This document shows, one piece after another, positions 7,529-40,563 of a stretch of DNA of 40,563 bases. Within the stretch, counting starts at the first letter, position 1. Every line of letters starts with the position of its first letter. The translations under genes and the position numbers were made by a program. The notes under the pieces are model-generated. The model had not been told where the DNA came from, did not search any database, and saw only the letters and a list, made by a program, of their open reading frames with translations. Source of the stretch: a virus (lineage: Duplodnaviria > Heunggongvirae > Uroviricota > Caudoviricetes). Where the stretch lies: positions 1 to 40,563 of IMG/VR virus record IMGVR_UViG_2778261280_000005; one strand, written 5' to 3'.

Positions 7529-8417
7529 CCTCCAGTTTCGCTTTGCATTCTATGTAAATGGCTTGTACGTTCTGCTGCAATTTCATTCCAGATGTCAGGC
7601 GATATGCTTCTGCAAAATATCGCTTCAAATCATCCATGTTTTCTGCCTGAGCCATTTCATCGCAAAGAAGTTGTACTTTATCCATTATTTCCTGCTGGCG
7701 TTTCCGTTCATCTTCGCGGATATCTTCCTCTGATTTGTGCGGCATAACTGGTTCAGTCCATACACCTTCTTCTTCGTTTAGTACGTGAATAGCACTATCA
7801 AGACGTGATGCCTTAGGCCAATACTTGCTTGCACGCTTTACGACCGTCTTTCGCGCCATCTCATTCCAGTGATTTACCCATGGTCCTTTATCGCTGAATG
7901 CTGCCTTGCTTGTTTTCCTTACAGCCTCAATTTCAGCCAGACTCATCTCTTCCGTTAGATAATCACCTGCTGGCGTCTTAACTGTGCAGTAAACGCCAAC
8001 AATATCACCACGATCACCGAAGGCGTTGTATTTATGGGTTGGTGCTTTATCAAGCCCGTTTGACTCATAGGTATCGTTAGCATGAACAAGTTTTGCCTGA
8101 CCCCATGATATAACACCAGACTCCATTGCAATATGGAGCAATCCCATATAACTGATATCAAGGCACACCATGCCGTCGCGCGGAACCAGATAAGCCAGTT
8201 TGCTAGCCGGGTTTAAGGTGATACCGATCGCCGCAACATTGATGATGGCGTTCTGTGCGCTGGTTGGATTTGCCAGTGCTGTTTTAGCCAGGTAATCATT
8301 TTTCTGGAAATACTGAATTGCAAACTGGCTTTCCTTAGCCCATGTCACCGTCTGTTCAGTCAATGCTCCGCAGAATAACTGCTCTTGCTGTTTAACGAAT
8401 TCAACGATATTGCTCAT
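7506..8417 (-). CDS. recT: RecT-family single-strand annealing recombinase
   Basis: 303-aa ORF; GPWVNHWNEMARKTVVKR matches the conserved RecT segment GPWVTHWEEMAKKTAIRR (recollection of Rac RecT). Confidence 0.85.
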   Translation of the reverse strand: MSNIVEFVKQQEQLFCGALTEQTVTWAKESQFAIQYFQKNDYLAKTALANPTSAQNAIINVAAIGITLNPASKLAYLVPRDGMVCLDISYMGLLHIAMESGVISWGQAKLVHANDTYESNGLDKAPTHKYNAFGDRGDIVGVYCTVKTPAGDYLTEEMSLAEIEAVRKTSKAAFSDKGPWVNHWNEMARKTVVKRASKYWPKASRLDSAIHVLNEEEGVWTEPVMPHKSEEDIREDERKRQQEIMDKVQLLCDEMAQAENMDDLKRYFAEAYRLTSGMKLQQNVQAIYIECKAKLEVASEQTV

Positions 8418-8725
8418 GCTGCTTCTCCATAAACGTGTCTGCGTTTGAATATTGCGAAGGCATATTCAGCCTTAACTCTTTCGGTTATTGCATCCCAGAA
8501 CCATTCAGCGGCTTTTTCCTGATAGTTACAGTCATAATCTTCCAGCCAGTCGATAGCGTCCTTAGTGTGTTCATCTGGTTTATATGAGCGAAGCATTTCG
8601 CTTATTGGGTCGAAACGTTTGCAGAGGCGATCAACTTCACTGTTGATTCGTTCGTAATCTTCATCAGTAAAACTTGCGATTATTTGCGATATTTCACGCT
8701 CATCTTTCAGAGTCAGAATCATCAT
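8414..8725 (-). CDS. Hypothetical protein (103 aa)
   Basis: ATG at 8725/8722 preceded by AGGAG; acidic protein. Confidence 0.5.
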   Translation of the reverse strand: MMILTLKDEREISQIIASFTDEDYERINSEVDRLCKRFDPISEMLRSYKPDEHTKDAIDWLEDYDCNYQEKAAEWFWDAITERVKAEYAFAIFKRRHVYGEAA

Positions 8726-8806
8726 CTTTCTCCTGTTCTTTGTGCTGATTGAGCATTTCTTTCATCTGACGAATGAATTCTTCGTCTGACCAGTTATCTG
8801 TAAAAC

Positions 8807-8978
8807 TCATGGACGGCCTTGTTGTTTCAAAATATCCCAAAGCTTTTCGAGCAAACTTTTCATTCTTGGTTGTTTAAAGTCTGCTCCGGTTAAAATATTT
8901 TTTCGTGAATGCTGCACCGATAAAATCGGGTTGAAAGGGCGAACCGATGCCGCCCCTGCAATAGCGAACTGTTGCATA
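8807..8978 (-). CDS. Hypothetical small protein (56 aa)
   Basis: ATG at 8978 with AAGGAG RBS; the track ORF (to 9082) starts at TTG and is probably over-extended. Confidence 0.4.
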
Positions 8979-9195
8979 GGATGCTCCTTCTGTTTGATTG
9001 CATAACGAAAACGCCTCGAGTGAAGCGTTATTGGTATGCATATAAAAAAGCCCTCACACTGGAGGGCAAAGAAGATTTCCAATAATCAGAACAAGTCGGC
9101 TCCTGTTTAGTTACGAGCGACATTGCTCCGTGTATTCACTCGTTGGAATGAATACACAGTGCAGTGTTTATTCTGTTGTTTATGCCAAAATAATT

Positions 9196-9438
9196 TTAAT
9201 CAGCAATAAACTCTTCTGGTAATTTATCAACTATTTGATGACTTATTATCAGCCATTTGCCATCCTTCGTTTCGTATGCATATTTCTGGTCTTTTATCAT
9301 CATGTGTTCAGCTACTGCCTTAACTGCCTGTTCGGTTACATCTTCTTTCTTTCCCACCCACATTCCTTTTTCAGTGTTTAATGTTCCTTGAAAAATACGA
9401 CCACTTAATGGGCTTGCACCCATAGTTTTTACTCTCAT
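9196..9438 (-). CDS. Hypothetical protein (80 aa), first gene downstream of N
   Basis: ATG at 9438 with GAGGA RBS; position corresponds to ral/sieB-type slots in lambda but no sequence recognition. Confidence 0.5.
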   Translation of the reverse strand: MRVKTMGASPLSGRIFQGTLNTEKGMWVGKKEDVTEQAVKAVAEHMMIKDQKYAYETKDGKWLIISHQIVDKLPEEFIAD

Positions 9439-9448
9439 GTATCAGTCC

Positions 9449-9748
9449 TCAAATAAGTGGTTTGCTGCCTAATTTCATTTTCTGGCGACCAACACAAGTC
9501 ACACCCATTTCACTGCGTGGCTTGCGGTAGTAAATACGGTTCTGTTTACTCTCGACTTCTTCTGCCTTCTTGCGGCAAAGGCTTCCGAGTGATGCTGCTT
9601 TATCTGCTCTGACGCAACCAGAGAGCTTTAGCGCAATTTTTCGCGCCAGTCGCTGTTCTTGCATTGCCTGTTCACGTTGAGCCTGTCTGCGTGCTCTGCG
9701 GCGATTTCTGGCGTTATCGTCAGCCAGATATGTAATGACTACTGTCAT
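9449..9748 (-). CDS. N: N-type transcription antiterminator
   Basis: 99-aa protein; arginine-rich N-terminal motif DNARNRRRARRQAQREQA; C-terminus ...GVTCVGRQKMKLGSKPLI matches lambda N ...GITCSGRQKIKGKSIPLI (recollection); nutL lies just upstream. Confidence 0.8.
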   Translation of the reverse strand: MTVVITYLADDNARNRRRARRQAQREQAMQEQRLARKIALKLSGCVRADKAASLGSLCRKKAEEVESKQNRIYYRKPRSEMGVTCVGRQKMKLGSKPLI

Positions 9749-9854
9749 GTTGACCTCCGATGATTGACTTTGGCGGTGACGCGCCGGGTGCTTATCTTCC
9801 GGTTGCCGTCGTGCAGCTGCACTTCACGTCACCCCAAAGCCAACTACTCTTTGG

Positions 9855-9897
9855 TTCCCGCATTTCGGCGGGACAATCCCATCAATGTTAAAGAGCC
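9855..9897 (-). promoter_or_regulatory. nutL: boxA-like (9886-9897) plus boxB hairpin (9855-9874)
   Basis: On minus strand GCTCTTTAAC followed by hairpin CCCGC-CGAAAT-GCGGG; same boxB sequence recurs at nutR. Confidence 0.6.
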
Positions 9898-9945
9898 TGC
9901 CAATCTGTTCCGTTTGGCTACCAGCGTCCTGCTGATGGCTTAAAG

Positions 9946-10028
9946 ATAACTTAGGTTATAGGTGTGGTCAATAACCTAATTTATATTTTATGGTAAATAA
10001 GTTATAAGTGATGGATAACAAAGGTATT
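9946..10028. promoter_or_regulatory. OL operator cluster / pL region
   Basis: ATAACTTAGGTTAT (9946-9959, perfect ATAAC-N4-GTTAT) plus two degenerate copies (9971-9984, 10015-10028) matching the OR operator pattern. Confidence 0.45.
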
Positions 10029-10149
10029 TTATTTTTGTAAATGTTGCTGATTGATTGGTGTTTGAGGGCTTACGTGCGGGGTGAAGGTGTTACCTTTGGC
10101 TTGATGCTTGTCTATGATGAGGATGGTTGATTGGGTGGTGAACGGCAGG

Positions 10150-10183
10150 AAAAGAAAACCCGGCGCTGAGGCCGGGTGTTTTT
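10150..10183 (-). terminator. Rho-independent terminator ending the cI-moron transcript
   Basis: Hairpin cccggc-gctgag-gccggg (10159-10176) flanked by A-run (10150-10158) and T-rich run on +; abuts the stop of the 98-aa gene. Confidence 0.6.
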
Positions 10184-10478
10184 AGTCTTTTCTTTTGCTT
10201 AGCATTTCGTCGATTTCTAAGTCAATACGATATTGATCTATTGCTTTTCTCTCGTTTGGGGTTGGTATTTTATACTGTTCAATTAGATCTGTTGTGTATT
10301 TTATTTCATCTAATGTGATTTTTATATCAGAGAGAATCTCTTTTATATCAATTAGATGCTCTTCTTCTTTTGCGCGATTAGAGCTATGTTCAATCATTTG
10401 AGATAGCTTTTTGCTAATGCTTAGCAAAACAAAAAGAATGATGACCAAAACAACAACAAAAACTATCAGAAATTCCAT
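10182..10478 (-). CDS. Moron at rex position: small membrane-anchored coiled-coil protein (98 aa), function unknown
   Basis: ATG at 10478 with GGAGGG RBS; N-terminal TM helix (EFLIVFVVVLVIILFVLLSI) then highly charged K/E/D/I-rich region; markedly AT-rich relative to neighbours; co-oriented directly downstream of cI. Confidence 0.7.
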   Translation of the reverse strand: MEFLIVFVVVLVIILFVLLSISKKLSQMIEHSSNRAKEEEHLIDIKEILSDIKITLDEIKYTTDLIEQYKIPTPNERKAIDQYRIDLEIDEMLSKRKD

Positions 10479-10518
10479 TATCCCTCCGCACTTCCGTAAG
10501 TCTTCTTCTGATTATCGG

Positions 10519-11226
10519 TTACCAACTATGAGACGACCAGAATACTCTGCCAATAATCCTTACGGTTTCATGAAATTCATCTCTATCCATTACTTCATCC
10601 GGGTACTCTTCGCGATTTATTGATCTGATTATCACCGATGTAGGGGTGGCGATTAATGTTTTTACTCGTAACAAATCAGACTGGCAAATAGCGTAGGTTT
10701 TACCATCTCTGATTGTGGTATCTTGCGTGTTAACACCAACAACATCGCCATCGTGAAGCGTTGGTTCCATGCTTTGCCCTACAACCCTAACTAGCTTGGC
10801 TGATCTTTCTGATACTCCCATCTTTTTCAGATAGTGCTTTCTGAAAACCAAAGAGAACTCCGATGATTCCTCTAGCTCGCAGCTACCGCTTCCAGCTGAA
10901 AGCGAAACGTTAAGAAGAGGCAACGCAACAAACTCGTCATCGTTTCTTTTAATGTCTTCCCATACCACAGCTTTTAAAGATGACTCACGGACATTGGATG
11001 GTTCTTCATGTGCACCATCCCTCATTTCACCAATACCAGAACTAAGCCATTCAGGACGCACTTTTAAAGCATTGGCTAATTCAACCATCTTGCGAGATCC
11101 GTTTGTTTTACCGGACGACATCTTCTGTATGGCTGGCTGAGATATTCCAACCATGTCAGCAAGCTGTGATTGTGATACCCCTGCTGAGCTCATGGCTGCA
11201 TTTAGTCTTTCTGCGAATGTTTTCAT
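10519..11226 (-). CDS. cI: CI-type prophage repressor (HTH plus LexA-like S24 peptidase domain)
   Basis: Start re-set to ATG at 11226 (track start at 11256 is TTG); N-terminal HTH (SQSQLADMVGISQPAIQKM), C-terminal S24-like segment (...VVGQSMEPTLHDGDVV...); divergent from cro with three operators between. Confidence 0.85.
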   Translation of the reverse strand: MKTFAERLNAAMSSAGVSQSQLADMVGISQPAIQKMSSGKTNGSRKMVELANALKVRPEWLSSGIGEMRDGAHEEPSNVRESSLKAVVWEDIKRNDDEFVALPLLNVSLSAGSGSCELEESSEFSLVFRKHYLKKMGVSERSAKLVRVVGQSMEPTLHDGDVVGVNTQDTTIRDGKTYAICQSDLLRVKTLIATPTSVIIRSINREEYPDEVMDRDEFHETVRIIGRVFWSSHSW

Positions 11227-11238
11227 ACCCACAAATCT

Positions 11239-11301
11239 ATAACTACGGTTATCCAAAGTAAAATAACAAAGGTTATTGCTATTTTTTATAACTTGAGTTA
11301 T
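11239..11301. promoter_or_regulatory. OR operators (three ATAAC-N4-GTTAT sites) with pRM/pR
   Basis: ATAACTACGGTTAT (11239-11252), ATAACAAAGGTTAT (11263-11276), ATAACTTGAGTTAT (11288-11301); centre spacing about 24-25 bp, between divergent cI and cro. Confidence 0.6.
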
Positions 11302-11337
11302 CTTTGGTTATAAGTAATGACCACAAGAGGTATGCTC

Positions 11338-11562
11338 ATGAATTTAGTAATTCAACGAGCCTTGAAAATTGTCGGTAGCCAAAAGCGCCTTGCCGACAAG
11401 TGTGGTGTAACGCAGCCAGCAGTACACAAATGGCTGAAAGGCGGGTTGGTCTCTCCAGAGAAAGTTACCGCCATCGTTAACGCCACTGGAGGGCAGATCA
11501 AGGCTTACGAAATTCGCCCCGATTTGCCACACCTGTTTCCAAAACCGAATCAGGCAGCATAA
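11338..11562 (+). CDS. cro: Cro-like repressor
   Basis: 74-aa HTH protein (ATG 11338 with AGAGG RBS) immediately right of OR; the track start at 11317 is also possible. Confidence 0.7.
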   Translation: MNLVIQRALKIVGSQKRLADKCGVTQPAVHKWLKGGLVSPEKVTAIVNATGGQIKAYEIRPDLPHLFPKPNQAA

Positions 11563-11568
11563 GTAACA

Positions 11569-11614
11569 CCGCTCTTTAACAGTCATGGTCCTCATTCCCG
11601 CCGAAATGCGGGAA
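11569..11614 (+). promoter_or_regulatory. nutR: boxA (11569-11580) plus boxB hairpin (11595-11614)
   Basis: CGCTCTTTAAC followed 14 nt later by TTCCCGC-CGAAAT-GCGGGAA, 19/20 identical to the nutL boxB on the opposite strand; located between cro and cII as in lambda. Confidence 0.6.
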
Positions 11615-11671
11615 TACAACGCGCATAAGTTGATGCGCATAACTTCTTATTTGTTAAGGAAATACTTACAT

Positions 11672-11950
11672 ATGGAACTTACAAGTACTCGCAAGAAAGC
11701 GAATGCAATTACAAGCAACATCCTGAATCGAATTGCTGTACGTGGTCAGCGAAAGGTTGCCGACGCGTTAGGGATTAATGAATCGCAAATTTCTCGATGG
11801 AAAGATAGCTTCATCCCAAAAATGGGAATGCTTCTGGCTGTTCTTGAATGGGGTGTTGAAGACGAGGAGTTGGCGGAACTGGCTAAGAAAGTAGCCAGAA
11901 TGCTGACAAAAGAAAAAGCCCCGAAGAACGGCGAATTCTTCGAGGCCTGA
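11672..11950 (+). CDS. cII: CII-type transcriptional activator
   Basis: 92-aa protein from ATG 11672 (AAGGA RBS); ...ESQISRWKDSFIPKMGMLLAVLEWGVEDEE... matches lambda CII ...KSQISRWKRDWIPKFSMLLAVLEWGV... (recollection); the track's N-terminal extension overlaps nutR. Confidence 0.8.
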   Translation: MELTSTRKKANAITSNILNRIAVRGQRKVADALGINESQISRWKDSFIPKMGMLLAVLEWGVEDEELAELAKKVARMLTKEKAPKNGEFFEA

Positions 11951-11984
11951 TGTAGAAAGACTGGATCAATCCACAGGAGTAATT

Positions 11985-12146
11985 ATGACAAAACGTCGTA
12001 AGAAATACCAGGAAAAAGAAGAGATTCGACACCCTGATTCACCTGAGGGATTAGTGGTAGCCGCAGCAAATAACAGGGCGTTCGCAGAGCGCCTTGTTGG
12101 TGTTTACAGACTAGCCAAAGCAGGAGTGAAGCATGGGCGTCGTTAA
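11985..12146 (+). CDS. Small basic ORF (53 aa) between cII and the replication gene
   Basis: ATG 11985 preceded by AGGAG; MTKRRKKYQEKEE...; below the ORF-track threshold. Confidence 0.35.
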   Translation: MTKRRKKYQEKEEIRHPDSPEGLVVAAANNRAFAERLVGVYRLAKAGVKHGRR

Positions 12147-31473: not shown

Positions 31474-32166
31474 ATGTTATATGCATTTAAGCTGGGCAGA
31501 AAACTGCGCGGCGAGGAACCTTATTGCCCTGAAAAAGGCGGGAAAGGTGGCAGTTCTGATAAAAGCGCAAAGTATGCAGCAGAAGCTCAGAAGTATGCCG
31601 CAGACCTGCAAAATCAGCAGTGGCAGACGATCATGAAAAACCTTGCTCCGTTCACGCCTCTTGCGGAGCAGTATGTTAACCAGCTTCAGAACCTTTCCAG
31701 TCTAGAAGGTCAGGGGCAGGCACTTAATCAGTATTACAACTCTCAGCAGTATAAAGACCTTGCAGGTCAGGCTCGTTACCAGAGTCTTGCTGCTGCGGAG
31801 GCGACTGGCGGACTTGGTTCGACAGCCACAAGCAATCAACTGGCTACGATTGCTCCGACTCTCGGTCAGTCGTGGTTATCAAACCAGATGAGCAATTACA
31901 ACAATCTGGCAAACGTTGGGCTTGGTGCGCTGCAAGGTCAGGCAAACGCTGGGCAGACATACGCCAACAACATGAGCAGCATTGCACAGCAAAGTGCAGC
32001 ACTTGCCGCTGCTAATGCCAATAAACCATCAAGTCTTCAGACTGCAATTAGCGGTGGCACGTCTGGTGCGATTGCCGGTGCAGGTCTTGCCAGTCTTTTG
32101 GGAACATCAACGCCTTGGGGCGCTGGCATTGGTGCTGGTATCGGATTGCTTGGCTCGTTGTTTTAA
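31474..32166 (+). CDS. Ejection (E) protein, P22 gp7-type
   Basis: 230 aa, Q/A/G-rich, position after gp14. Confidence 0.8.
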   Translation: MLYAFKLGRKLRGEEPYCPEKGGKGGSSDKSAKYAAEAQKYAADLQNQQWQTIMKNLAPFTPLAEQYVNQLQNLSSLEGQGQALNQYYNSQQYKDLAGQARYQSLAAAEATGGLGSTATSNQLATIAPTLGQSWLSNQMSNYNNLANVGLGALQGQANAGQTYANNMSSIAQQSAALAAANANKPSSLQTAISGGTSGAIAGAGLASLLGTSTPWGAGIGAGIGLLGSLF

Positions 32167-32175
32167 GGGGTAATC

Positions 32176-33564
32176 ATGGCTACTTGGCAAGGAACAAACG
32201 GCGGATTGTTGGCTGGTATCGGCGGCGTCAACTCAAACGCTCCGAGCGTAAATGACATCGGCAATACGCTTCAGCTTATCAGGCAGAACAATGATATTGA
32301 GCGTTCAGGCGCTAACAATGTTGGGCTGACTGCTTTGCAAGGCCTTTCAGGTATTGCGGGGGTGTTTCAGCAGGAAAAGCAGGCTCAGCGGCAGAAAGAA
32401 TTTCAGCAGGCATACGCTAATGCTTATGCGTCTGGTGATCGCGGTGCTTTGCGTCAGTTGGCTACTCAATATCCAGACCAGATTGAATCCGTTCGTAAAG
32501 GCATGGGATTCATTGATGAAGAGCAGCGTAATTCTATCGGCACCTTAGCGGCTGGCGCACGCCTTGCGGCCTCGTCTCCAGAAGCAATGCAATCATGGCT
32601 GCAAAACAACGCCAAGGAACTGACTCGCGTCGGTGTTGACCCTAATAACGTTGCTCAGATGTATCAGCAGAATCCTTCAGGATTTGGTGAGTTTGTTGAT
32701 CACCTTGGAATGGCCGCGCTTGGTCCGATTGATTACTTCAATGTTCAGGACAAGATGGCTGGTCGTGAGATTGATCGCGGAAAACTTGCAGAGACAATCC
32801 GCAGCAATCAGGCTGGCGAGGCGCTAACAGCACGAGGCCAGAACATCACGATGCGCGGTCAGGACTTATCTGCTTCTACTGCGCGACGAGGTCAGGATTT
32901 GGCAATGCAGCGAGCGTCAACAAGAGGAATCGCTGGGAATGATGAGCGTACAGTTCAGTTATCAGATGGCAGAACTGTAACGGTAGGCGGGAAGCTTCAT
33001 GGCGCTGGGGCTAATGCGTTCTACGAAGGTATCGACAACGAGGGGAATATGGTTCGCGTTCCTGCCAGTTCAATCGCAGCGCCTGCAACATCGTCTGCAT
33101 CAGCACAAAACTATGCCATGAAGAAGGATATCGACGCGATCGCAAATGCAGACGCTTCTGCTCTCGATTTCATGACAGGAATGACCGGCGGCGCAGGTAA
33201 CCCGGCAATTGGTGCTGATGTTCGCAGCCGATTAACAGGAAAAGAGCAGCGCCAGTTATATAACTCAGCACAACGCATTCAGGGCAGAATGCAGAATCAG
33301 GGTGTGGCGGCAGCAAGGGACATGGGGGCCAGTGGTATTAACACCGTTGCAGAAGCGAAGATGTATTTTCAGGGGATGCCGCAGGTTGACTATTCAAGCC
33401 CGGAGGCTATGCAGCAGTCGATTCGTGAAATTCAGGAATACACCAACAATTACAACCAACAATATAACGTTAATGTTGGTAAATCTCAGCGGAAGCAATC
33501 TCAACCTGCACAGGTATCACAGCCAGCAGCCAGCAGTAACTTTTCTTCACTATGGGGTGATTAA
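32176..33564 (+). CDS. Ejection protein, P22 gp20-type
   Basis: 462 aa, position and composition. Confidence 0.8.
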
Positions 33565-35561
33565 TGGCTAAAGCATGGAAAGATGTTATCGCCTCTCCAC
33601 AGTATCAGGCGTTAGCACCAGAACAAAAAGCGCAGGCTCAGGAGCAATACTTCAATGAAGTCGTGGCCCCGCAAGCCGGAGAAAATGCAGAGCAGGCTAA
33701 GCAAGCTTTCTATGCTGCCTATCCATTGCCATCTGTGCAGCCAGTGGAGACACAACAACCATTAGCACAGCAACAACCACAGCAAAGTGGATTTATGTCT
33801 GATCTTGGCGAAGCAGTAAGAGAGACTGGTCGCGGACTGGTGCAGGCTGGCGTGAACGTGGCAAACATACCTGCATCAGTTGCCGATGCTGTAACAAGTG
33901 CGGCGGCATGGGCCGGCGGTAAACTCGGTATTGGCGATGGAACATACCAACCAGCGCCACGAGTAACAACGCAGGGATTGGAGCAGGACTTTGGCCTTCA
34001 GCAAGGTGCGCTGACTCCACAAACGACAGAGGGAAGGGTATTTGCTGAAGCATTGCCTTACCTCACTCCTGCTGGCGTTGAGAGAGCGGCAGCACAGGCA
34101 CCAACACTTGCTGGTCGAATTGCTCAGGGGGCAACTCGCCTTCTCGCTGAAAACGCAGTTGGATCACTTGCTGCAAATAGTGCGAAAGATGATGCGGAAG
34201 CACTCGCCACCGATTTAGGCGTTGGTGTACTTGCTGGCGGTGCTATTAACGCTGCTGGACGTGGATTAGGTGCTGCTTATCGTGGCGTTCGTGGTGCTAT
34301 CACGCCAGAAGCGCAGCAGGCTATCAGATTTGCAGAGCGTGAAGGAGTTCCTCTGCACACCACAGACCTGTTACAACCCACTTCCCGCGTCGGAAAAATG
34401 GCGCAGACTACAGCAGAAAATATCCCTCTGGCTGGCACAAGCGGAATGAGAGCAACGCAACAGGAAGCGAGAAGCCAGTTGGTGCAGAGATTTGCCGATA
34501 AATTCGGTGAGTATGATCCAGCGGTTATTATTGACAGCCTTAAAGCGAAAACATCAGGAATTCGTCGTGCCGCCGGTAATCGACTGGAGCAGGTTCAGAA
34601 TGCTATGGCGGGAGTCAATATCCAGCCTGCGCGAGCAATTCAGCAGATTGATACTGAGATATCTAATCTGCAGAAGCTTGGTAAGGTAGCTGATAACGAG
34701 ACAATTTCAAAACTTCAGTCATATCGTGATGAGCTTGTTCGCAATGCTGGCCCTGATGGTCCGGTAAATCTGGATTTGAAGCAATTAAGCGACCTGCGCA
34801 GCCAGTTCAGAATGGACGTGAAGGGTGAGCGACCAGTGTTACCAAACCGTTCAGATGCTGCCATTCAGCGCGTTTACAAGGCAATGACTGACGATATCAA
34901 TGGTGCCATTGGTCAGAATCTTGGCAACGATACTCTCCGTAAATATCAGCAGGCCAATGCCGTCTATGCTGACGAAGCTGCGAAACTAAAGAATACCAGG
35001 CTGAAGAATGTTCTCATGAAAGGCGATCTGACGCCGGAAGTTGTCAACAACATGCTATTCAGCAAGAACAAATCGGAAATTAAGACTCTGTATAACTCAG
35101 TTGGTCGTGTTGGCAGGGCGCAAATGCGCAATGGCATCATTGGAAAGGCGATGGAGAAATCAGGTGGTTCCCCTGACCAGTTCCTTCGGCAGCTTAACAT
35201 CCTGCAAAACCAGACTGGCATCACATTTAAAGGTCAGGAAGCCGCTTATCTGAAAGGATTGAAAAACTACCTGCAATCCACGCAGCAGGCTGCAAAAGCG
35301 GCAGTAACAACACCAACAGGGCAGCAAACCATCCCGTTCATTATCGGGTATGGGACGGCAATGAACCCGGCGACAACTGGCGCAGCGGTAAGCTACGGAC
35401 TTCTTACTCGCGCCTATGAGAGCGAGCCATTCAGAAATGCAATGCTCCGAATGGCAAACACCCCACGCGGATCAACAGCGTTTGAGAAAGCCATGCAGCA
35501 GGCGCAAAAGGCCATTAACGCCCTGACTCAAGGTGCCAAGTCTGATGCGTTGTCAGAATAG
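33564..35561 (+). CDS. Ejection protein, P22 gp16-type
   Basis: 665 aa, position and composition. Confidence 0.8.
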   Translation: MAKAWKDVIASPQYQALAPEQKAQAQEQYFNEVVAPQAGENAEQAKQAFYAAYPLPSVQPVETQQPLAQQQPQQSGFMSDLGEAVRETGRGLVQAGVNVANIPASVADAVTSAAAWAGGKLGIGDGTYQPAPRVTTQGLEQDFGLQQGALTPQTTEGRVFAEALPYLTPAGVERAAAQAPTLAGRIAQGATRLLAENAVGSLAANSAKDDAEALATDLGVGVLAGGAINAAGRGLGAAYRGVRGAITPEAQQAIRFAEREGVPLHTTDLLQPTSRVGKMAQTTAENIPLAGTSGMRATQQEARSQLVQRFADKFGEYDPAVIIDSLKAKTSGIRRAAGNRLEQVQNAMAGVNIQPARAIQQIDTEISNLQKLGKVADNETISKLQSYRDELVRNAGPDGPVNLDLKQLSDLRSQFRMDVKGERPVLPNRSDAAIQRVYKAMTDDINGAIGQNLGNDTLRKYQQANAVYADEAAKLKNTRLKNVLMKGDLTPEVVNNMLFSKNKSEIKTLYNSVGRVGRAQMRNGIIGKAMEKSGGSPDQFLRQLNILQNQTGITFKGQEAAYLKGLKNYLQSTQQAAKAAVTTPTGQQTIPFIIGYGTAMNPATTGAAVSYGLLTRAYESEPFRNAMLRMANTPRGSTAFEKAMQQAQKAINALTQGAKSDALSE

Positions 35562-35630
35562 CTTCGCAAACACCAGGAACGTGCAAAAACCAAATATGTA
35601 GAACGCAATATTCAGCATGTCTCTTTGCAT
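35553..35630 (-). CDS. Small hydrophobic peptide (25 aa) downstream of mnt
   Basis: MQRDMLNIAFYIFGFCTFLVFAKLF; ATG 35630 seven nt after GGAGGA; 3' end overlaps the gp16 stop region; speculative. Confidence 0.25.
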   Translation of the reverse strand: MQRDMLNIAFYIFGFCTFLVFAKLF

Positions 35631-35650
35631 AAATCCTCCGTAACTGATAG

Positions 35651-35944
35651 TTAGCTGCTGTCTTTTTTATATAGCTCTTTGAGCGTATCAAAGACAATTT
35701 TCTTAACCATATCAGATTGTTGTTCTGCCATACGCTCTGCATCGTCAATGTAAACTGATGCAGAGCTTTGTTTAGCCAATGATTCTTCAATCGCTGCAAT
35801 TATCTCTGAGTTCAGAGACCTGTTATTCATCTTCGCACGCTGTTTAATTTTCGCGTGGAGTTCATGCGGAAGTCTCAAGTGAAACTGCGCCTCGTCGTAT
35901 TTGCTGTACATCCTTGATGCCTCACCAGTTGGGTGGAATGGCAT
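35651..35944 (-). CDS. mnt: Mnt-like ribbon-helix-helix repressor
   Basis: C-terminal ...DAERMAEQQSDMVKKIVFDTLKELYKK matches P22 Mnt ...DAERLADEQSELVKKMVFDTLKDLYKK (recollection); start may be ATG 35944 or 35911. Confidence 0.7.
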   Translation of the reverse strand: MPFHPTGEASRMYSKYDEAQFHLRLPHELHAKIKQRAKMNNRSLNSEIIAAIEESLAKQSSASVYIDDAERMAEQQSDMVKKIVFDTLKELYKKDSS

Positions 35945-36032
35945 CGTAACCTACTGGATAAATACTCAATAGTACCATTTCGGTATGCAATCACATCATG
36001 GTTGCATCATATCATTCGTCTGGAGCAATGAA

Positions 36033-37961
36033 ATGTCAGATATCACCGCAAATGTTGTGGTAAGCATGCCTTCGCAACTCTTCACTATGGCTCGTTCTTT
36101 TAAAGCCGTAGCCAATGGCAAAATTTATATCGGTAAAATTGACACGGACCCTGTAAATCCTGAAAACCAGATTCAGGTTTATGTGGAGAACGAAGACGGT
36201 TCTCACGTTCCTGTTGCACAGCCAATCATCATTAACTCTGCTGGATATCCTGTATATAACGGACAGATTGCCAAATTCGTAACTGTGCAAGGCCATTCTA
36301 TGGCTGTGTACGATGCGTACGGTGCGCAGCAGTTTTATTTTCCAAATGTGCTGAAGTATGACCCTGATCAGTTACGGAATGATTTATCCAGCGGATCAAA
36401 TAATCTCGGTGACAACCTTGTTGCTGTAAAGCAGCCATTCCCTCTGGTGATGCAAAGAACGCAACATGATTTCAACGCAGATTATATAAATGTCAAGGAT
36501 TGGGGTGCAAAAGGGGACGGTGTAACAGATGACACCAATGCCATCGACGCCGCGTGTGCAGCATTAACAGGAACTAGTTTAGTCACTAACTTCCGTAGAC
36601 TGTACTTACCGCATGGTACATATATCTACAATGGGGCGGGTATCACTCTGCCGAGTGGGACCACTATTTGCGGGGAAGATTTATTCACAATAATCGACGC
36701 CTCGAATAATGCCAACTCAGGATATTTAGTAACCCTGGTAGGATTTGGAGCGCGACTAGAAACACTACGCTTAAAAGGGAATGCAAGTAATGCTAACCTT
36801 AAGGGGATTTCTAGCGCGTATAACTCGGATAATGGCGGTGTTGTAGACGCAATACTTGAAGACTTCCACTACGGTATGGATATTGATAAATGTTGGTACT
36901 CTGTGTACCAAAATATCCGTTTCCGTCGTAGTGGCTCATCTGTGGTGCTAACAGGATCACATATCCGAATTGGCTACAATCAGCCAACAAAGGAAGTCAA
37001 CAACGTTAACTTCTCAAATATATGGATGACAGGGCAGCAAGCACATTCAGTGACCGTACATTGCAAAACTCAAACTCTTACATGGAATGAGTGCTCGTTC
37101 GAAACTAAAGGTCAGTCACGCATATACTTTGCTACTGCAGAATCAGTAAACACGTTTACCCTCAACTCTTGTTATATCGAGGGGGATGTAGAATCCTCGT
37201 CTTACCCATATTTGGTAGAGGGGCAGACTGTAAATCAGGTAATAACCTGTAACGATTGCATGTTCCGTTTAGGAAACACAGCTAGCTCACTTGGTAAGAA
37301 CATCACTATCAATTTAAACGGCGGTTGGTCCAATAGCCCTGACGTATCTTTACAGTCTAATAATACCAAAGTTTGGATGACTAACTATCTTTACTTAGGC
37401 GCATTCTCTGACGCCCCTAATTACAGTCAGTCTGGCGATTACGACGGCTCAGCTATGCACAGTGCTTCGGTGATGATGTCTCCAAGACCAATGGATATAA
37501 GGGATTGGAATTCAGTGATACCTCATTACGTAAATTACAAGACACACCAATCGACCTCACCAGTTGATATATTCAAGATTTACATTCCAACCGGATCAAA
37601 TCCGAGACAAATGCTTCTAAATATAAAAGCATTAACAAAAAGCACAAGTGAAACATATATTCAGGGAGTTGAGGAATATATGTTAGCGATAACATTGCCA
37701 GAAACTTCAACTCCAGGAACTGGGACATACGTAGCAAAATTACACTCTTCATCAAAAGATAACGCAACATTGCTTTCTGATATGGCGTTTAGTATCACAT
37801 CAAATGGTTATGACAGCACAACTGATGCTTACGAATACACTATTTCTCATAGCGTTTCTAATAGCACCAGGCTTGGAACTACTACATATGTTATGAATGG
37901 AGTATTCACGTTAAATGGTTTATCTACAACAACACCTAAATGGAGAATTCGTCGATTGTAA
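36033..37961 (+). CDS. Tailspike: P22-type head-binding N-domain plus divergent beta-helix receptor-binding domain
   Basis: 642 aa from ATG 36033 (GGAG RBS); N-terminus [68 protein letters not shown]... matches the P22/Sf6 tailspike head-binding domain; remainder unlike P22, with a pectate-lyase-like motif [19 protein letters not shown]. Confidence 0.85.
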
Positions 37962-37998
37962 AAAGACTTTCGCCCTCTTAAGAGGGCGAAAGTCTTTT
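37961..37998. terminator. Bidirectional rho-independent terminator between convergent tailspike and acetylase genes
   Basis: Perfect 17-bp inverted repeat aaaagactttcgccctc / gagggcgaaagtctttt with 4-nt loop, with A-run and T-run on the two arms. Confidence 0.75.
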
Positions 37999-38995
37999 AA
38001 CAGAAGTATCGTACTAAAGGGATTCTTTTCAAAATATACGAAACACATAAAGAGGCAATAAACATAAAAATACACACCATTGGTAAGAAGTAAGTCATGG
38101 AATTTGTCCAACTTAGTTGCCATACATGCTGTTTTAATGGGATTAATAATGCTGGGTGAATGCAATAAATAGCAAATGTATATTTGCTTATATTGTGAGA
38201 TATTTTGTTTAAATAAATGGAATTAATTTTTGTACATAAAAGTAGCAGTGAACATGCAGCAATTAATGTATTTAATGCATAGTTATCTAGAAATGCTTGG
38301 CTAGGTTTTCCTATAAAATGTGAATAAAAACTATTCATTAATGCTGTGAATATAATTGCCAGCATGAATACCGATAATAATAAAAATCTGTTGTTAAATT
38401 TATCTTTTATATCATAGATATACTTTCCAATAAACATATACCAACTAAGTGTTGTCATTGAGTCTAGATTGAACTTAGATTGTAAATTAATACCTGTTAG
38501 TGATTTAAATACATTTAATTGAAAGAGTAATGCCAATGAAATTAATAGTAATATTTTCTGTTTCTCACTCATACTATAGTATGTGAAAGATATTACAGGG
38601 GTTATTGCATACATTCCTAGTAGGAAGTACAAATACCAAAGGTGGTACATGGCTTGCCCATTAAATACTTTGCTAATAAATCCTGTAAATGTAGGGTCAT
38701 TATTATATGCGATATAGTAAAAAGCAGACCATGCAAATAATACCGCTGTGGCTTTTGGTAATTTTTTCTTGTAAAACTTAAATGGTTTAATATTCTCCTT
38801 TAGCAAAAGGATGCCTGATATCATAATGAAAATAGGAACTGCGCATCTTGATAAAGAGTTATAAAAGTTAACTACTTCCCATACTGGTTGGAATTTATAA
38901 TTCCAGTATGCGGTAACGTGCGTCATTACTACAAGGAAGCAAGACACTGTTCTTGCAAGATCTATATCGTAAATACGTCCTGCTACGTTACTCAT
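37997..38995 (-). CDS. oac: O-antigen acetyltransferase (acyltransferase-3 family integral membrane protein)
   Basis: 332-aa multi-TM protein in the tailspike-oac-int arrangement described for Shigella phage Sf6 (recollection); AT-rich. Confidence 0.75.
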   Translation of the reverse strand: MSNVAGRIYDIDLARTVSCFLVVMTHVTAYWNYKFQPVWEVVNFYNSLSRCAVPIFIMISGILLLKENIKPFKFYKKKLPKATAVLFAWSAFYYIAYNNDPTFTGFISKVFNGQAMYHLWYLYFLLGMYAITPVISFTYYSMSEKQKILLLISLALLFQLNVFKSLTGINLQSKFNLDSMTTLSWYMFIGKYIYDIKDKFNNRFLLLSVFMLAIIFTALMNSFYSHFIGKPSQAFLDNYALNTLIAACSLLLLCTKINSIYLNKISHNISKYTFAIYCIHPALLIPLKQHVWQLSWTNSMTYFLPMVCIFMFIASLCVSYILKRIPLVRYFC

Positions 38996-39405: not shown

Positions 39406-40563
39406 TCACTCCACCTTTTCATCAAGCCAATCTGCCCACCACTGCATCATTTCTCTGCGCTTATCGAGATACTGAGCATGGTTGTAAATTCCACGCACAG
39501 ATCCGCCGTTGGCATGTGCCAGTTGCACTTCAATAGCGTCAGCAGGCCATTCGTGCTCGTTCATAATCGTGCTGAATTCATGCCTGAATCCGTGACCGCT
39601 TTCCAGACCTTCATAGCCGATTTGTTTGATCACAAGTAGCACCGCGTTCTCGCAGATTGGCTTCTTCTTATCGTTGCGCCCGGCAAAAACAAACTCTGAT
39701 ACTGGTTTGGTGATTGAGCTTAGCGTAGTGAGAAGTTCAACCACCTGGTCTGACATCGGGACCACATGAATCTTTCGGCCCTTCATCACACTGGCGTCGA
39801 TGGTGATAATCCTGTTTTCAAAATCGACGTTCTTCCATAGCATGGAACGAAGCTCTTTTGTTCTTAGGGCTGTGTAGCGTAAAACTTTGGTCGCAATGAG
39901 CGATACGATACTTCCTGAAAATGTTGCCAGTGCTTTGTTGAATGCAGGCATCTGGTCTGCTGGAAGGAACGGGAAGTTCTTCTTGCGGTATCCTTTCATG
40001 GCGTCTGCAAGGTCAGGTGCCGGGTTATATTTAGCCCTTCCGGTGACAATAGCGTAACGAAAAACCTCGCCGCATCTTCTGCGGGCTTTGTTGGCTCGCT
40101 CCATTGCACCGCGATCTTCAAATCTGCGGATTACTTCCAGCAGTTGCATCGGCTCAATATCCTGAATTTCAAGGCCGCCGATGATAGGTAAAATGTCGTC
40201 ATCAAACATTTTTGCAAGTTCAGTCGCATACCCTACAGACCAGACTTGCTTCTTGTGCTCGTACCATTCCTTGTAAATCGCACTAAATGAATTGTTGTTA
40301 GACGAAGCTTTTTTCGCCTTTACCGGATCGATGCCAACCGAGATGTCTTTCCTCGCAGTCCATGCCTTATCCCTTGCCTCCTGCAAAGTCATTAGCGGAT
40401 ATTTTCCTACGGTCAGGATTTTCTCCTTACCGTCAATCTTGTAGCGAAGCTGCCATACCTTTTTCCCGGATACAGGGACATAAAGGTACAGGCCATTACC
40501 ATCGAGAAGGCGGTATGGTTTTTCTTTCGGCTTTGCTGCTTCAATCTGCTTAACGGTGAGCAT
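39406..40563 (-). CDS. int: Tyrosine integrase (P4/IntS-type, tRNA-targeting)
   Basis: 385 aa; start codon is the last 3 nt of the window; C-terminal catalytic region with ...HGFRHEF... and ...RGIYNHAQY... (R/H-x-x-R/Y motifs). Confidence 0.9.
   Translation of the reverse strand: MLTVKQIEAAKPKEKPYRLLDGNGLYLYVPVSGKKVWQLRYKIDGKEKILTVGKYPLMTLQEARDKAWTARKDISVGIDPVKAKKASSNNNSFSAIYKEWYEHKKQVWSVGYATELAKMFDDDILPIIGGLEIQDIEPMQLLEVIRRFEDRGAMERANKARRRCGEVFRYAIVTGRAKYNPAPDLADAMKGYRKKNFPFLPADQMPAFNKALATFSGSIVSLIATKVLRYTALRTKELRSMLWKNVDFENRIITIDASVMKGRKIHVVPMSDQVVELLTTLSSITKPVSEFVFAGRNDKKKPICENAVLLVIKQIGYEGLESGHGFRHEFSTIMNEHEWPADAIEVQLAHANGGSVRGIYNHAQYLDKRREMMQWWADWLDEKVE

Follow-up and report, generated by a model that had tools for sequence, protein, structure and literature searches.

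The lambdoid prophage in IMG/VR record IMGVR_UViG_2778261280_000005 (a stretch of 40,563 nucleotides (nt), here called the window) carries a small gene between its cI-like repressor gene and its N-like antiterminator gene. The gene, an open reading frame (ORF) of 98 amino acids (aa) called ORF98, is real and under purifying selection. Judged from its sequence context, it is accessory cargo within the cI operon, in the slot that holds rexAB in phage lambda. Its layout makes it very probable that ORF98 is co-transcribed with cI, and hence made in lysogens, and that its product is a single-pass inner-membrane protein. We put forward more tentatively, with somewhat less than an even chance of being right, that ORF98 represents a new single-gene exclusion family (<100 aa) that rides the repressor transcript in at least ten enterobacterial lambdoid immunity groups. 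Its proteins would work at the inner membrane from the cytoplasmic side, via a conserved acidic two-helix domain (KYTTD...YKLP...ER..ID..RID.EID), by a mode without homologue among catalogued systems. The window as a whole is P22/Sf6/IME10-like, with the integrase gene at its right end (39406-40563). The features on which the argument turns are these.

10182-10478, minus strand: ORF98, 98 aa, ATG to TAA, from the ORF call and its translation.
10482-10487, minus strand: Shine-Dalgarno sequence GGAGGG, from reading the sequence; the ATG follows 4 nt further on.
10479-10518, minus strand: spacer of 40 nt that separates the start of ORF98 from the cI stop codon, without a terminator.
10519-11226, minus strand: cI-like repressor gene (HTH_3 and Peptidase_S24 domains; 708 nt), Pfam E 1.4e-17, phrog_4.
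10149-10181, minus strand: immunity-operon terminator (tIMM equivalent), with a stem-loop at 10158-10177 and a T tract at 10149-10157.
10179-10516, minus strand: exchangeable cargo segment, from pairwise blastn against the related locus L018.

An earlier reading made from the letters alone (the sequence-only reading) had described a 98-aa ORF right behind cI on the same strand with a strong ribosome-binding site, and the 40-nt gap and GGAGGG motif bear this out. Motifs resembling a Shine-Dalgarno sequence stand at the equivalent place in the loci of ORF98 homologues, and the RefSeq annotation has an identical cI coding sequence of 708 nt. The ratio of nonsynonymous to synonymous substitution rates (dN/dS) is 0.16-0.25 when ORF98 is compared with orthologues at a synonymous divergence (dS) of 0.8-1.0. 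Comparison with a near-identical E. coli copy gives 0.12, and the remaining orthologues compared with each other give 0.13-0.18; the dS of the orthologues reaches 0.8-1.7. Because dN/dS stays within 0.12-0.25, ORF98 is a real gene rather than a chance ORF. Annotation could suggest a chance ORF or a decaying remnant, as every source calls the protein a ‘hypothetical protein’ and the gene is unannotated in the sole phage record that contains it. Against this stand the low dN/dS over that whole range of dS, a length of 94-126 aa kept in all 14 clusters of the family, the conserved start, ribosome-binding site and position, and the occurrence of the exact ORF98 sequence on 739 contigs. These data on selection and conservation effectively refute a non-functional ORF, the least probable of the readings considered here.

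The composition of ORF98 sets it apart from its neighbours, as the sequence-only reading had noticed. Its guanine plus cytosine (GC) content is 30.3% (27% at third codon positions), compared with 43.4% in cI, 48.7% in N, and 46.9% in the whole window, and just 1.3% of windows of 297 nt match it in AT-richness. The best promoter candidate for the gene is a sigma-70-like site that matches at 9 of 12 positions and is located within the 3'-terminal part of cI (10553 to 10525); sites of this 9/12 type number three in the region, below the shuffle mean of 4.6. A private promoter shared across the homologues seems unlikely from the sequences, because homologue spacers are 0-15 nt long with unrelated cI genes upstream. 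Since neither a terminator nor a convincing promoter lies between cI and ORF98, the gene would be transcribed with cI from pRM, presumed to lie within oR (11239-11301), plus pRE at the establishment of lysogeny. From this operon geometry, and from it only, we strongly infer expression in lysogens.

The terminator that follows ORF98 had been read as dedicated to it, and this claim did not survive comparison. In the terminator scan, read along the minus strand, a GC-rich stem of 7 bp (10158-10177) precedes UUUCUUUU, with a fold energy of -13.7 kcal/mol and a modest z-score of -1.6; read along the plus strand, the element (10149-10181) resembles a terminator too. Base for base, the hairpin CCCGGCCTCAGCGCCGGG+TTTTCTTT is that of lambda tIMM, which lies just downstream of rexB, and the same hairpin is the feature annotated Timm in phage HK244 (EF120457). 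The segments compared were 10158-10177 of the window, 985-1030 of lambda (NC_001416; L019), and 2532-2557 of HK244 (L020). Because the hairpin is identical to lambda tIMM and is kept with other cargo in L018, the terminator is not dedicated to ORF98; by sequence it is a conserved, shared immunity-operon terminator. This bears on the term ‘moron’ that had been applied to the gene. Its deviant GC content (30% against 43% and 49% in the neighbours) and its status as a gene added relative to the loci L005, L016 and L018 fit the term; a terminator of its own is missing, and the best promoter site matches at just 9 of 12 positions. With a shared terminator and no evident promoter of its own, ORF98 falls outside the strict definition of a moron (PMC3594210).

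The order of elements around ORF98 involves the following further features.

11239-11252, 11263-11276 and 11288-11301, between cI and cro: oR, three ATAAC-N4-GTTAT operators, from a pattern search.
9946-9959 and 9971-9984: oL1 and oL2, overlapping the pL-like promoter, from the operator pattern search.
9971 to 9943, minus strand: pL-like promoter TTGACC-17-TATCTT, from the promoter scan; start of the leftward early operon, downstream of tIMM.
9449-9748, minus strand: N-like antiterminator gene (phrog_271, E 9e-36; weak Pfam N_peptide match), the left edge of the cI-N interval.

The operator pattern occurs seven times in the window against an expectation of 1.08, and five of the seven matches are clustered at oL (9946-9984) and oR (11239-11301). 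The window thus reads oR - cI - ORF98 - tIMM - oL/pL - nutL - N, and the annotated lambda order, oR - cI - rexA - rexB - tIMM - oL/pL - nutL - N, follows the same plan. This agreement upholds the ‘rex position’ assigned to the gene from the letters, as does a homologue of ORF98 that replaces rexAB in Citrobacter. The repressor at that locus (L002) is 78% identical to lambda cI; as it is of lambda type, the homologue, 77% identical to ORF98, occupies the exact place of rexAB.

Comparison of the cI-N interval across related prophages, which the sequence-only reading had proposed, found replacement of the cargo. In L018 (E. coli 98192), whose cI is 98.9% identical, pairwise blastn gives homology to window positions 9854-10178 and 10517-11400 only; the left block takes in the terminator, the right block begins at the cI stop codon, and only 10179-10516 is swapped. 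The cargo of L018 (1327-2400) consists of an SDH-type Clp-fold serine protease and an ORF of 56 aa. In L016 and L017, with cI 92-94% identical, the cargo (1091-2463) comprises a DUF3024 protein, which corresponds to the PADLOC defence candidate PDC-S43 (E 6e-41), and ORFs of 177 aa and 44 aa. None of the DUF3024 and SDH-protease cargo proteins of these same-cI prophages is characterised. ORF98 is absent from L005, L016 and L018, a sister cI type (79% nucleotide identity) has no co-directional gene in the slot, and HK244, of lambda immunity, has two other hypothetical genes, HK24405 and HK24404, before Timm. The converse is seen in the Citrobacter locus L002 and in locus L007, where homology to the window by pairwise blastn is limited to 10155-10488, that is, terminator, ORF98 and ribosome-binding site, behind unrelated repressors. 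The cI stop codon and the tIMM hairpin are therefore the fixed frame of a cargo slot, and the hairpin may serve as a recombination junction. That the slot is a hotspot for cargo, as had been claimed, agrees with published work that treats the cI-N region as a recognised hotspot for mosaic diversity, with rexAB and bstA in this synteny, the abortive-infection gene bstA occupying the slot in phage BTP1 (PMC8585504).

The remainder of the interval offers some observations of its own. Between oL and tIMM (10020-10150) the plus strand is strongly G-rich, with GC skew up to +0.39, and this segment is conserved in L018 and L001 irrespective of cargo; it contains no ORF and no Rfam family. In close relatives an insertion of 251 bp (L001 5464-5714; L018 744-994) separates the N start from the nutL-like hairpin. 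It gave no Rfam match and no convincing ORF; the window is without it, and its site corresponds to 9853/9854. A search of Rfam over 9000-12000 yielded nothing meaningful, the single match having an E of 0.96. The small RNA svsR (PMC12803456) was considered as a lead and dropped, as it concerns the 3' end of another cI.

Across relatives the association of ORF98 with repressor genes is wide and is not bound to one immunity type. Ten homologue lineages, 35-77% identical, lie 0-54 nt behind a repressor of the S24 type, co-directional with it and ahead of N (L002/L003, L007, L008, L009, L010/L011, L012/L013, L014/L015, L022/L023, L024 and the window). A hairpin and T-run follow the gene in seven of the eight distinct loci for which downstream sequence was read. 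Between the window and Citrobacter the ORF is 77% identical and cI 22%, whereas between L007 and L008 the cI proteins are 86% identical and the ORFs just 63%; because the two divergences do not track each other, ORF98 and cI recombine independently, although in these lineages their relative placement is kept every time. For the same reason, the idea that ORF98 is tied to one repressor specificity was rejected. Three loci have a small convergent ORF of 68-74 aa that separates the ORF98 homologue from N (L002 6324-6530, L007 5324-5548 and L008 2402-2611, all on the minus strand); the one in L008 encodes a DUF2767 protein, and the window has no counterpart.

Within E. coli, ORF98 is present in 99 of 5426 complete genomes (~2%), and it adjoins an ‘XRE family transcriptional regulator’ in all 30 of the matches listed. 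A cI of the window type (at least 90% identity) occurs in 113 complete genomes; ~88% of this immunity type has ORF98 and ~12% has other cargo. All 30 close IMG/VR loci share the same cI (at least 98.7% aa identity), the 40-nt spacer and the same terminator; one further candidate from that locus search, L056, proved to be a false positive, with the seed motif inside a large unrelated ORF. Carriers include O26:H11, represented by strain 11368 (locus ECO26_RS17585), and other Shiga toxin-producing E. coli (STEC) strains. Among 50,697 phage records searched by tblastn, a single deposited phage genome contains the gene, the Stx1a-converting phage Stx1a_10051.

The protein encoded by ORF98 is a small one of simple predicted layout, as follows.

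Residues 3-21: anchor helix.
Residues ~23-44: variable stalk.
Residues 45-68: helix A.
Residues 69-74: Y-K-[IL]-P-x-P turn.
Residues 75-97: helix B.

The anchor has a mean Kyte-Doolittle hydropathy of 3.67, and in the family alignment it keeps its hydrophobicity and not its sequence, while the linker varies in both length and sequence. Conservation is centred on the C-terminal domain (L-x-E-I-K-Y-[TV]-T-D-x-I-E-K-Y-K-L-P-x3-E-R-x2-I-D-Q-I-R-I-D-x-E-I-D), with Y69, P72, D81 and E88 invariant, and this domain has a net charge of -2 to -9 across the family. AlphaFold2 models (predicted local distance difference test 80-81, predicted template modelling score ~0.3) have helices with a break at 69-73 (YKIPT), and confidence is low over the variable linker at residues 30-44. 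The sequence-only reading had predicted one N-terminal membrane helix followed by a charged, probable coiled coil. The N-terminal hydrophobic helix holds, as does the charged and helical remainder: the segment after the anchor is rich in I, L, E, K and D and is predicted to be helical. The label of coiled coil draws solely on helix prediction and on matches to designed coiled coils that reflect composition. A likeness of the tail to the C-terminal peptide of FtsZ, seen by eye, was dropped, as the conserved proline of that peptide is absent.

All 17 aligned family members have no lysine or arginine ahead of the hydrophobic helix and one to four in the next 15 residues. This charge pattern also bears on whether ORF98 might be a lysis-type or membrane-toxic protein (resembling an i-spanin, holin, antiholin or type I toxin) that lies beside cI by chance. 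An N-terminal membrane helix, two helices and a proline hinge are superficially reminiscent of the i-spanin Rz, and the gene is small, hydrophobic and AT-rich; yet the charge distribution predicts a topology opposite to that of Rz (N-in/C-out), and no o-spanin partner is embedded or adjacent. The gene is in the immunity operon and not in a lysis cassette, and a toxin without an antitoxin would kill the cell if it were made constitutively along with cI. No Rz, holin or spanin match was found in Pfam or PHROGs at E<=1. A lysis or toxin protein is thus very improbable.

Database comparison places ORF98 in a family of its own, in agreement with the earlier remark that no characterised family could be recognised; searches of Pfam, NCBIfam, PADLOC, PHROGs and PDB sequences all bear on this. 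The protein matches phrog_18389, of function unknown, over its full length (E 5.2e-62, with residues 1-98 aligned to positions 1-98 of the 98-position profile), and all 17 aligned relatives match that profile alone. In a word-indexed search, 5.8 billion proteins yielded 11 clusters, which come from E. coli and Citrobacter. When 1.84 billion representatives were searched exhaustively with a profile, 14 clusters (defined at 50% identity) had E<=1e-3; this exhaustive search with a hidden Markov model returned just proteins of ~100 aa from ORF98's own family. In scans of ORF98 against Pfam, NCBIfam and PADLOC all matches were sub-threshold and driven by the membrane helix (DUF5385, DUF3784, MscL, ZorB), and a Pfam scan of all 17 members gave no family in common. 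The profile search of PDB sequences returned designed coiled coils only, a compositional effect, and Foldseek against viral structures gave no matches. The RexA and RexB families are not among the Pfam, PHROG and PADLOC matches at E<=1, and no mention of the protein accessions or the PHROG identifier of the family was found in the literature.

Taken with the position of the gene, these properties suggest a model in which ORF98 is an exclusion protein made in lysogens. Translated continuously from its own strong ribosome-binding site, the protein would insert its N-terminal helix in the inner membrane with the N-terminus outside and the remainder in the cytoplasm, and the stalk of variable length would hold the conserved acidic two-helix domain (~55 aa) at the cytoplasmic face. 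There the domain may bind a conserved partner at the membrane, either the DNA-entry machinery of the incoming phage or a host inner-membrane factor that the phage uses, and so shield the lysogen from heteroimmune superinfecting phages. Most probably it would do so by superinfection exclusion, with a block to DNA entry or to an early event at the inner membrane. Among the candidate modes of action, exclusion during DNA entry or close to it leads; its basis is guilt by position, and we give it a chance approaching, and not reaching, even. A membrane protein with a motif that faces the cytoplasm is compatible with such a block because P22 SieA (PMC10883804) and HK97 gp15 (PMC3594210) provide precedents.

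Several points weigh against exclusion. Location in a hotspot is guilt by association only, and a gene carried in this slot may serve something other than defence. In several known superinfection-exclusion (Sie) proteins the exclusion domain is thought to face the periplasm, unlike the conserved domain of ORF98, which is predicted to be cytoplasmic; and the N-out/C-in topology is itself one that we infer from the positive-inside rule alone. The family is very small (14 clusters), and its three most distant members (26-35% identical) do not lie beside a recognisable repressor. No known superinfection-exclusion family (SieA, SieB, Imm, YebO/gp15) is among the Pfam and PHROG matches at E<=1, and the sole match in PADLOC-DB 2.0, to ZorB (E 0.0089, 13.5 bits), falls over the membrane helix.

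In favour of exclusion, the window is without ORFs like sieA and sieB at the places usual for them. Within 31474-35944 no sieA-like ORF lies between the three ejection-protein genes (31474-35561) and the tailspike gene, and the sole ORF there encodes 97 aa on the minus strand (35651-35944) and is Arc/Mnt-like by eye. To the left of N (8400-9440) there is no sieB-like ORF, and a DUF7446 gene is found instead (9196-9438).

The best-studied occupants of the slot, rexAB and bstA (PMC8585504), are both abortive-infection systems, and ORF98 might likewise be a component of one. Its tethered cytoplasmic domain would sense a phage product after DNA entry, for which a conserved domain in the cytoplasm is well suited, and the infected lysogen would undergo growth arrest or death, brought about by ORF98 alone or via a host membrane protein or protease, with an outcome like that of RexAB or BstA rather than an entry block. 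That the alternative cargo DUF3024/PDC-S43 is a defence candidate also agrees with this. The helix of ORF98, on the other hand, is uniformly hydrophobic, without a polar or charged face, and poorly conserved, which is anchor-like and not like a pore. No enzymatic or effector domain is found within the 98 aa, no conserved partner gene adjoins, and there is no PADLOC match to support the idea. Both the sensing step and the death of the infected cell as its outcome appear improbable.

The main rival to exclusion is a role outside defence, which we regard as unlikely, although less so than abortive infection. ORF98 could act in the lysogen on a host inner-membrane process (the FtsH/HflKC protease, cell division, envelope stress, or a transporter), or it could tune the lysis-lysogeny decision or the induction of the prophage through co-expression from pRE and pRM. 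Tight co-expression with cI over about ten immunity groups would fit lysogeny-linked housekeeping just as well, and many small single-pass membrane proteins regulate membrane complexes. An N-out anchor with cytoplasmic helices is also seen in the host regulators PspB, YhcB and ZipA. Set against these points, ORF98 is dispensable for the immunity type, as ~12% of same-cI E. coli prophages have other cargo and the sister cI type has none, and the phylogenies of the ORF and of cI do not track. The Pfam scan gave no similarity to PspB, YhcB, ZipA or cIII, and the prophage already has a cIII-like ORF (8807-8977). This frame, on the minus strand, reads MQQFAIAG...SLLEKLWDILKQQGRP and lies inside a called ORF of 91 aa (8807-9082); it was recognised by eye only and is seemingly shorter than lambda cIII.

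Should exclusion prove to be the function of ORF98, the gene would be a very small single-gene addition to the defence repertoire. Few places in a lysogen are transcribed as highly as the slot between cI and tIMM, and RexAB and BstA have already come from it. The location in the cI operon is well known as a hotspot, within which ORF98 is a clean and tiny candidate, widespread in pathogenic E. coli; as an exclusion gene it could affect phage therapy or phage typing of the strains that carry it. The conserved motif (Y69, P72, D81, E88) and easy genetics would make an exclusion function, if true, tractable. As fixed junctions, the cI stop codon and the tIMM hairpin also give a simple rule for harvesting cargo genes from genomes.

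Elsewhere in the window, the stretch of lowest GC content lies within 37997-38995 on the minus strand, where the 297-nt window that starts at 38261 has 24% GC. The ORF there encodes 332 aa, a multi-pass membrane protein that is acyltransferase-like by eye only, and it sits between the tailspike gene (35985-37961) and the integrase gene (39406-40563), the classic place of an O-antigen-modifying conversion gene such as oac of Sf6.

Comparison with known systems helps to define what kind of element ORF98 may be. Lambda rexAB, like ORF98, follows the cI stop codon and precedes tIMM, upstream of oL/pL-nutL-N, with an identical terminator hairpin, and behind a lambda-type cI an ORF98 homologue stands in for it. 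RexB is an inner-membrane protein, as is predicted for ORF98. The differences are as clear: rexAB consists of two genes (annotated at 279 aa and 144 aa) and RexB is polytopic, whereas ORF98 is a single gene whose 98-aa product has one predicted membrane helix, and no similarity in sequence was found in Pfam, PHROGs or PADLOC.

BstA of the Salmonella prophage BTP1 is, like ORF98, encoded by a single accessory gene right behind the repressor gene (PMC8585504). The bstA gene is presumed to use the repressor promoter, ends at a Rho-independent terminator, and shows high expression in lysogens, and its synteny with the repressor is kept across diverse prophages (PMC8585504). BstA is described as a protein that localises where phage DNA is replicated, and its system includes a self-immunity element in the DNA, aba, in contrast with ORF98, which is small, predicted to be membrane-anchored, and of no detected similarity to it.

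Two proteins that exclude phages at DNA entry resemble ORF98 in other respects. The sieA gene sits in the immI/late region of P22, a phage to which the P22/Sf6-like prophage of the window is akin, and the window has no sieA-like ORF in the usual place. SieA is a prophage-expressed protein of the inner membrane that blocks DNA injection, with a cytoplasmic location predicted for its most conserved motif (PMC10883804); at 162-164 aa with three predicted membrane helices, it differs from ORF98, with its single anchor and no sequence similarity. HK97 gp15 is a small, prophage-expressed inner-membrane protein whose gene has a GC content unlike that of its neighbours, and it excludes heteroimmune phages at DNA entry (PMC3594210). 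Small size, (predicted) membrane location and deviant GC content are thus common to gp15 and ORF98. HK97 encodes gp15 within its tail operon, under a separate promoter and terminator, and the protein derives from the host YebO family, whereas ORF98 is in the cI operon, gave no YebO match and has no evident promoter.

The closest neighbours by location are the other cargoes of the same cI-tIMM segment in prophages of the same or related immunity, namely HK24405/HK24404 of HK244, the DUF3024/PDC-S43 protein and the SDH-protease cassette. All are unrelated to ORF98, and the DUF3024 protein alone among them has a candidate-defence label. On the evidence of its sequence and surroundings, ORF98 is an analogue of rexAB and bstA in position and operon logic, and it is outside both families.

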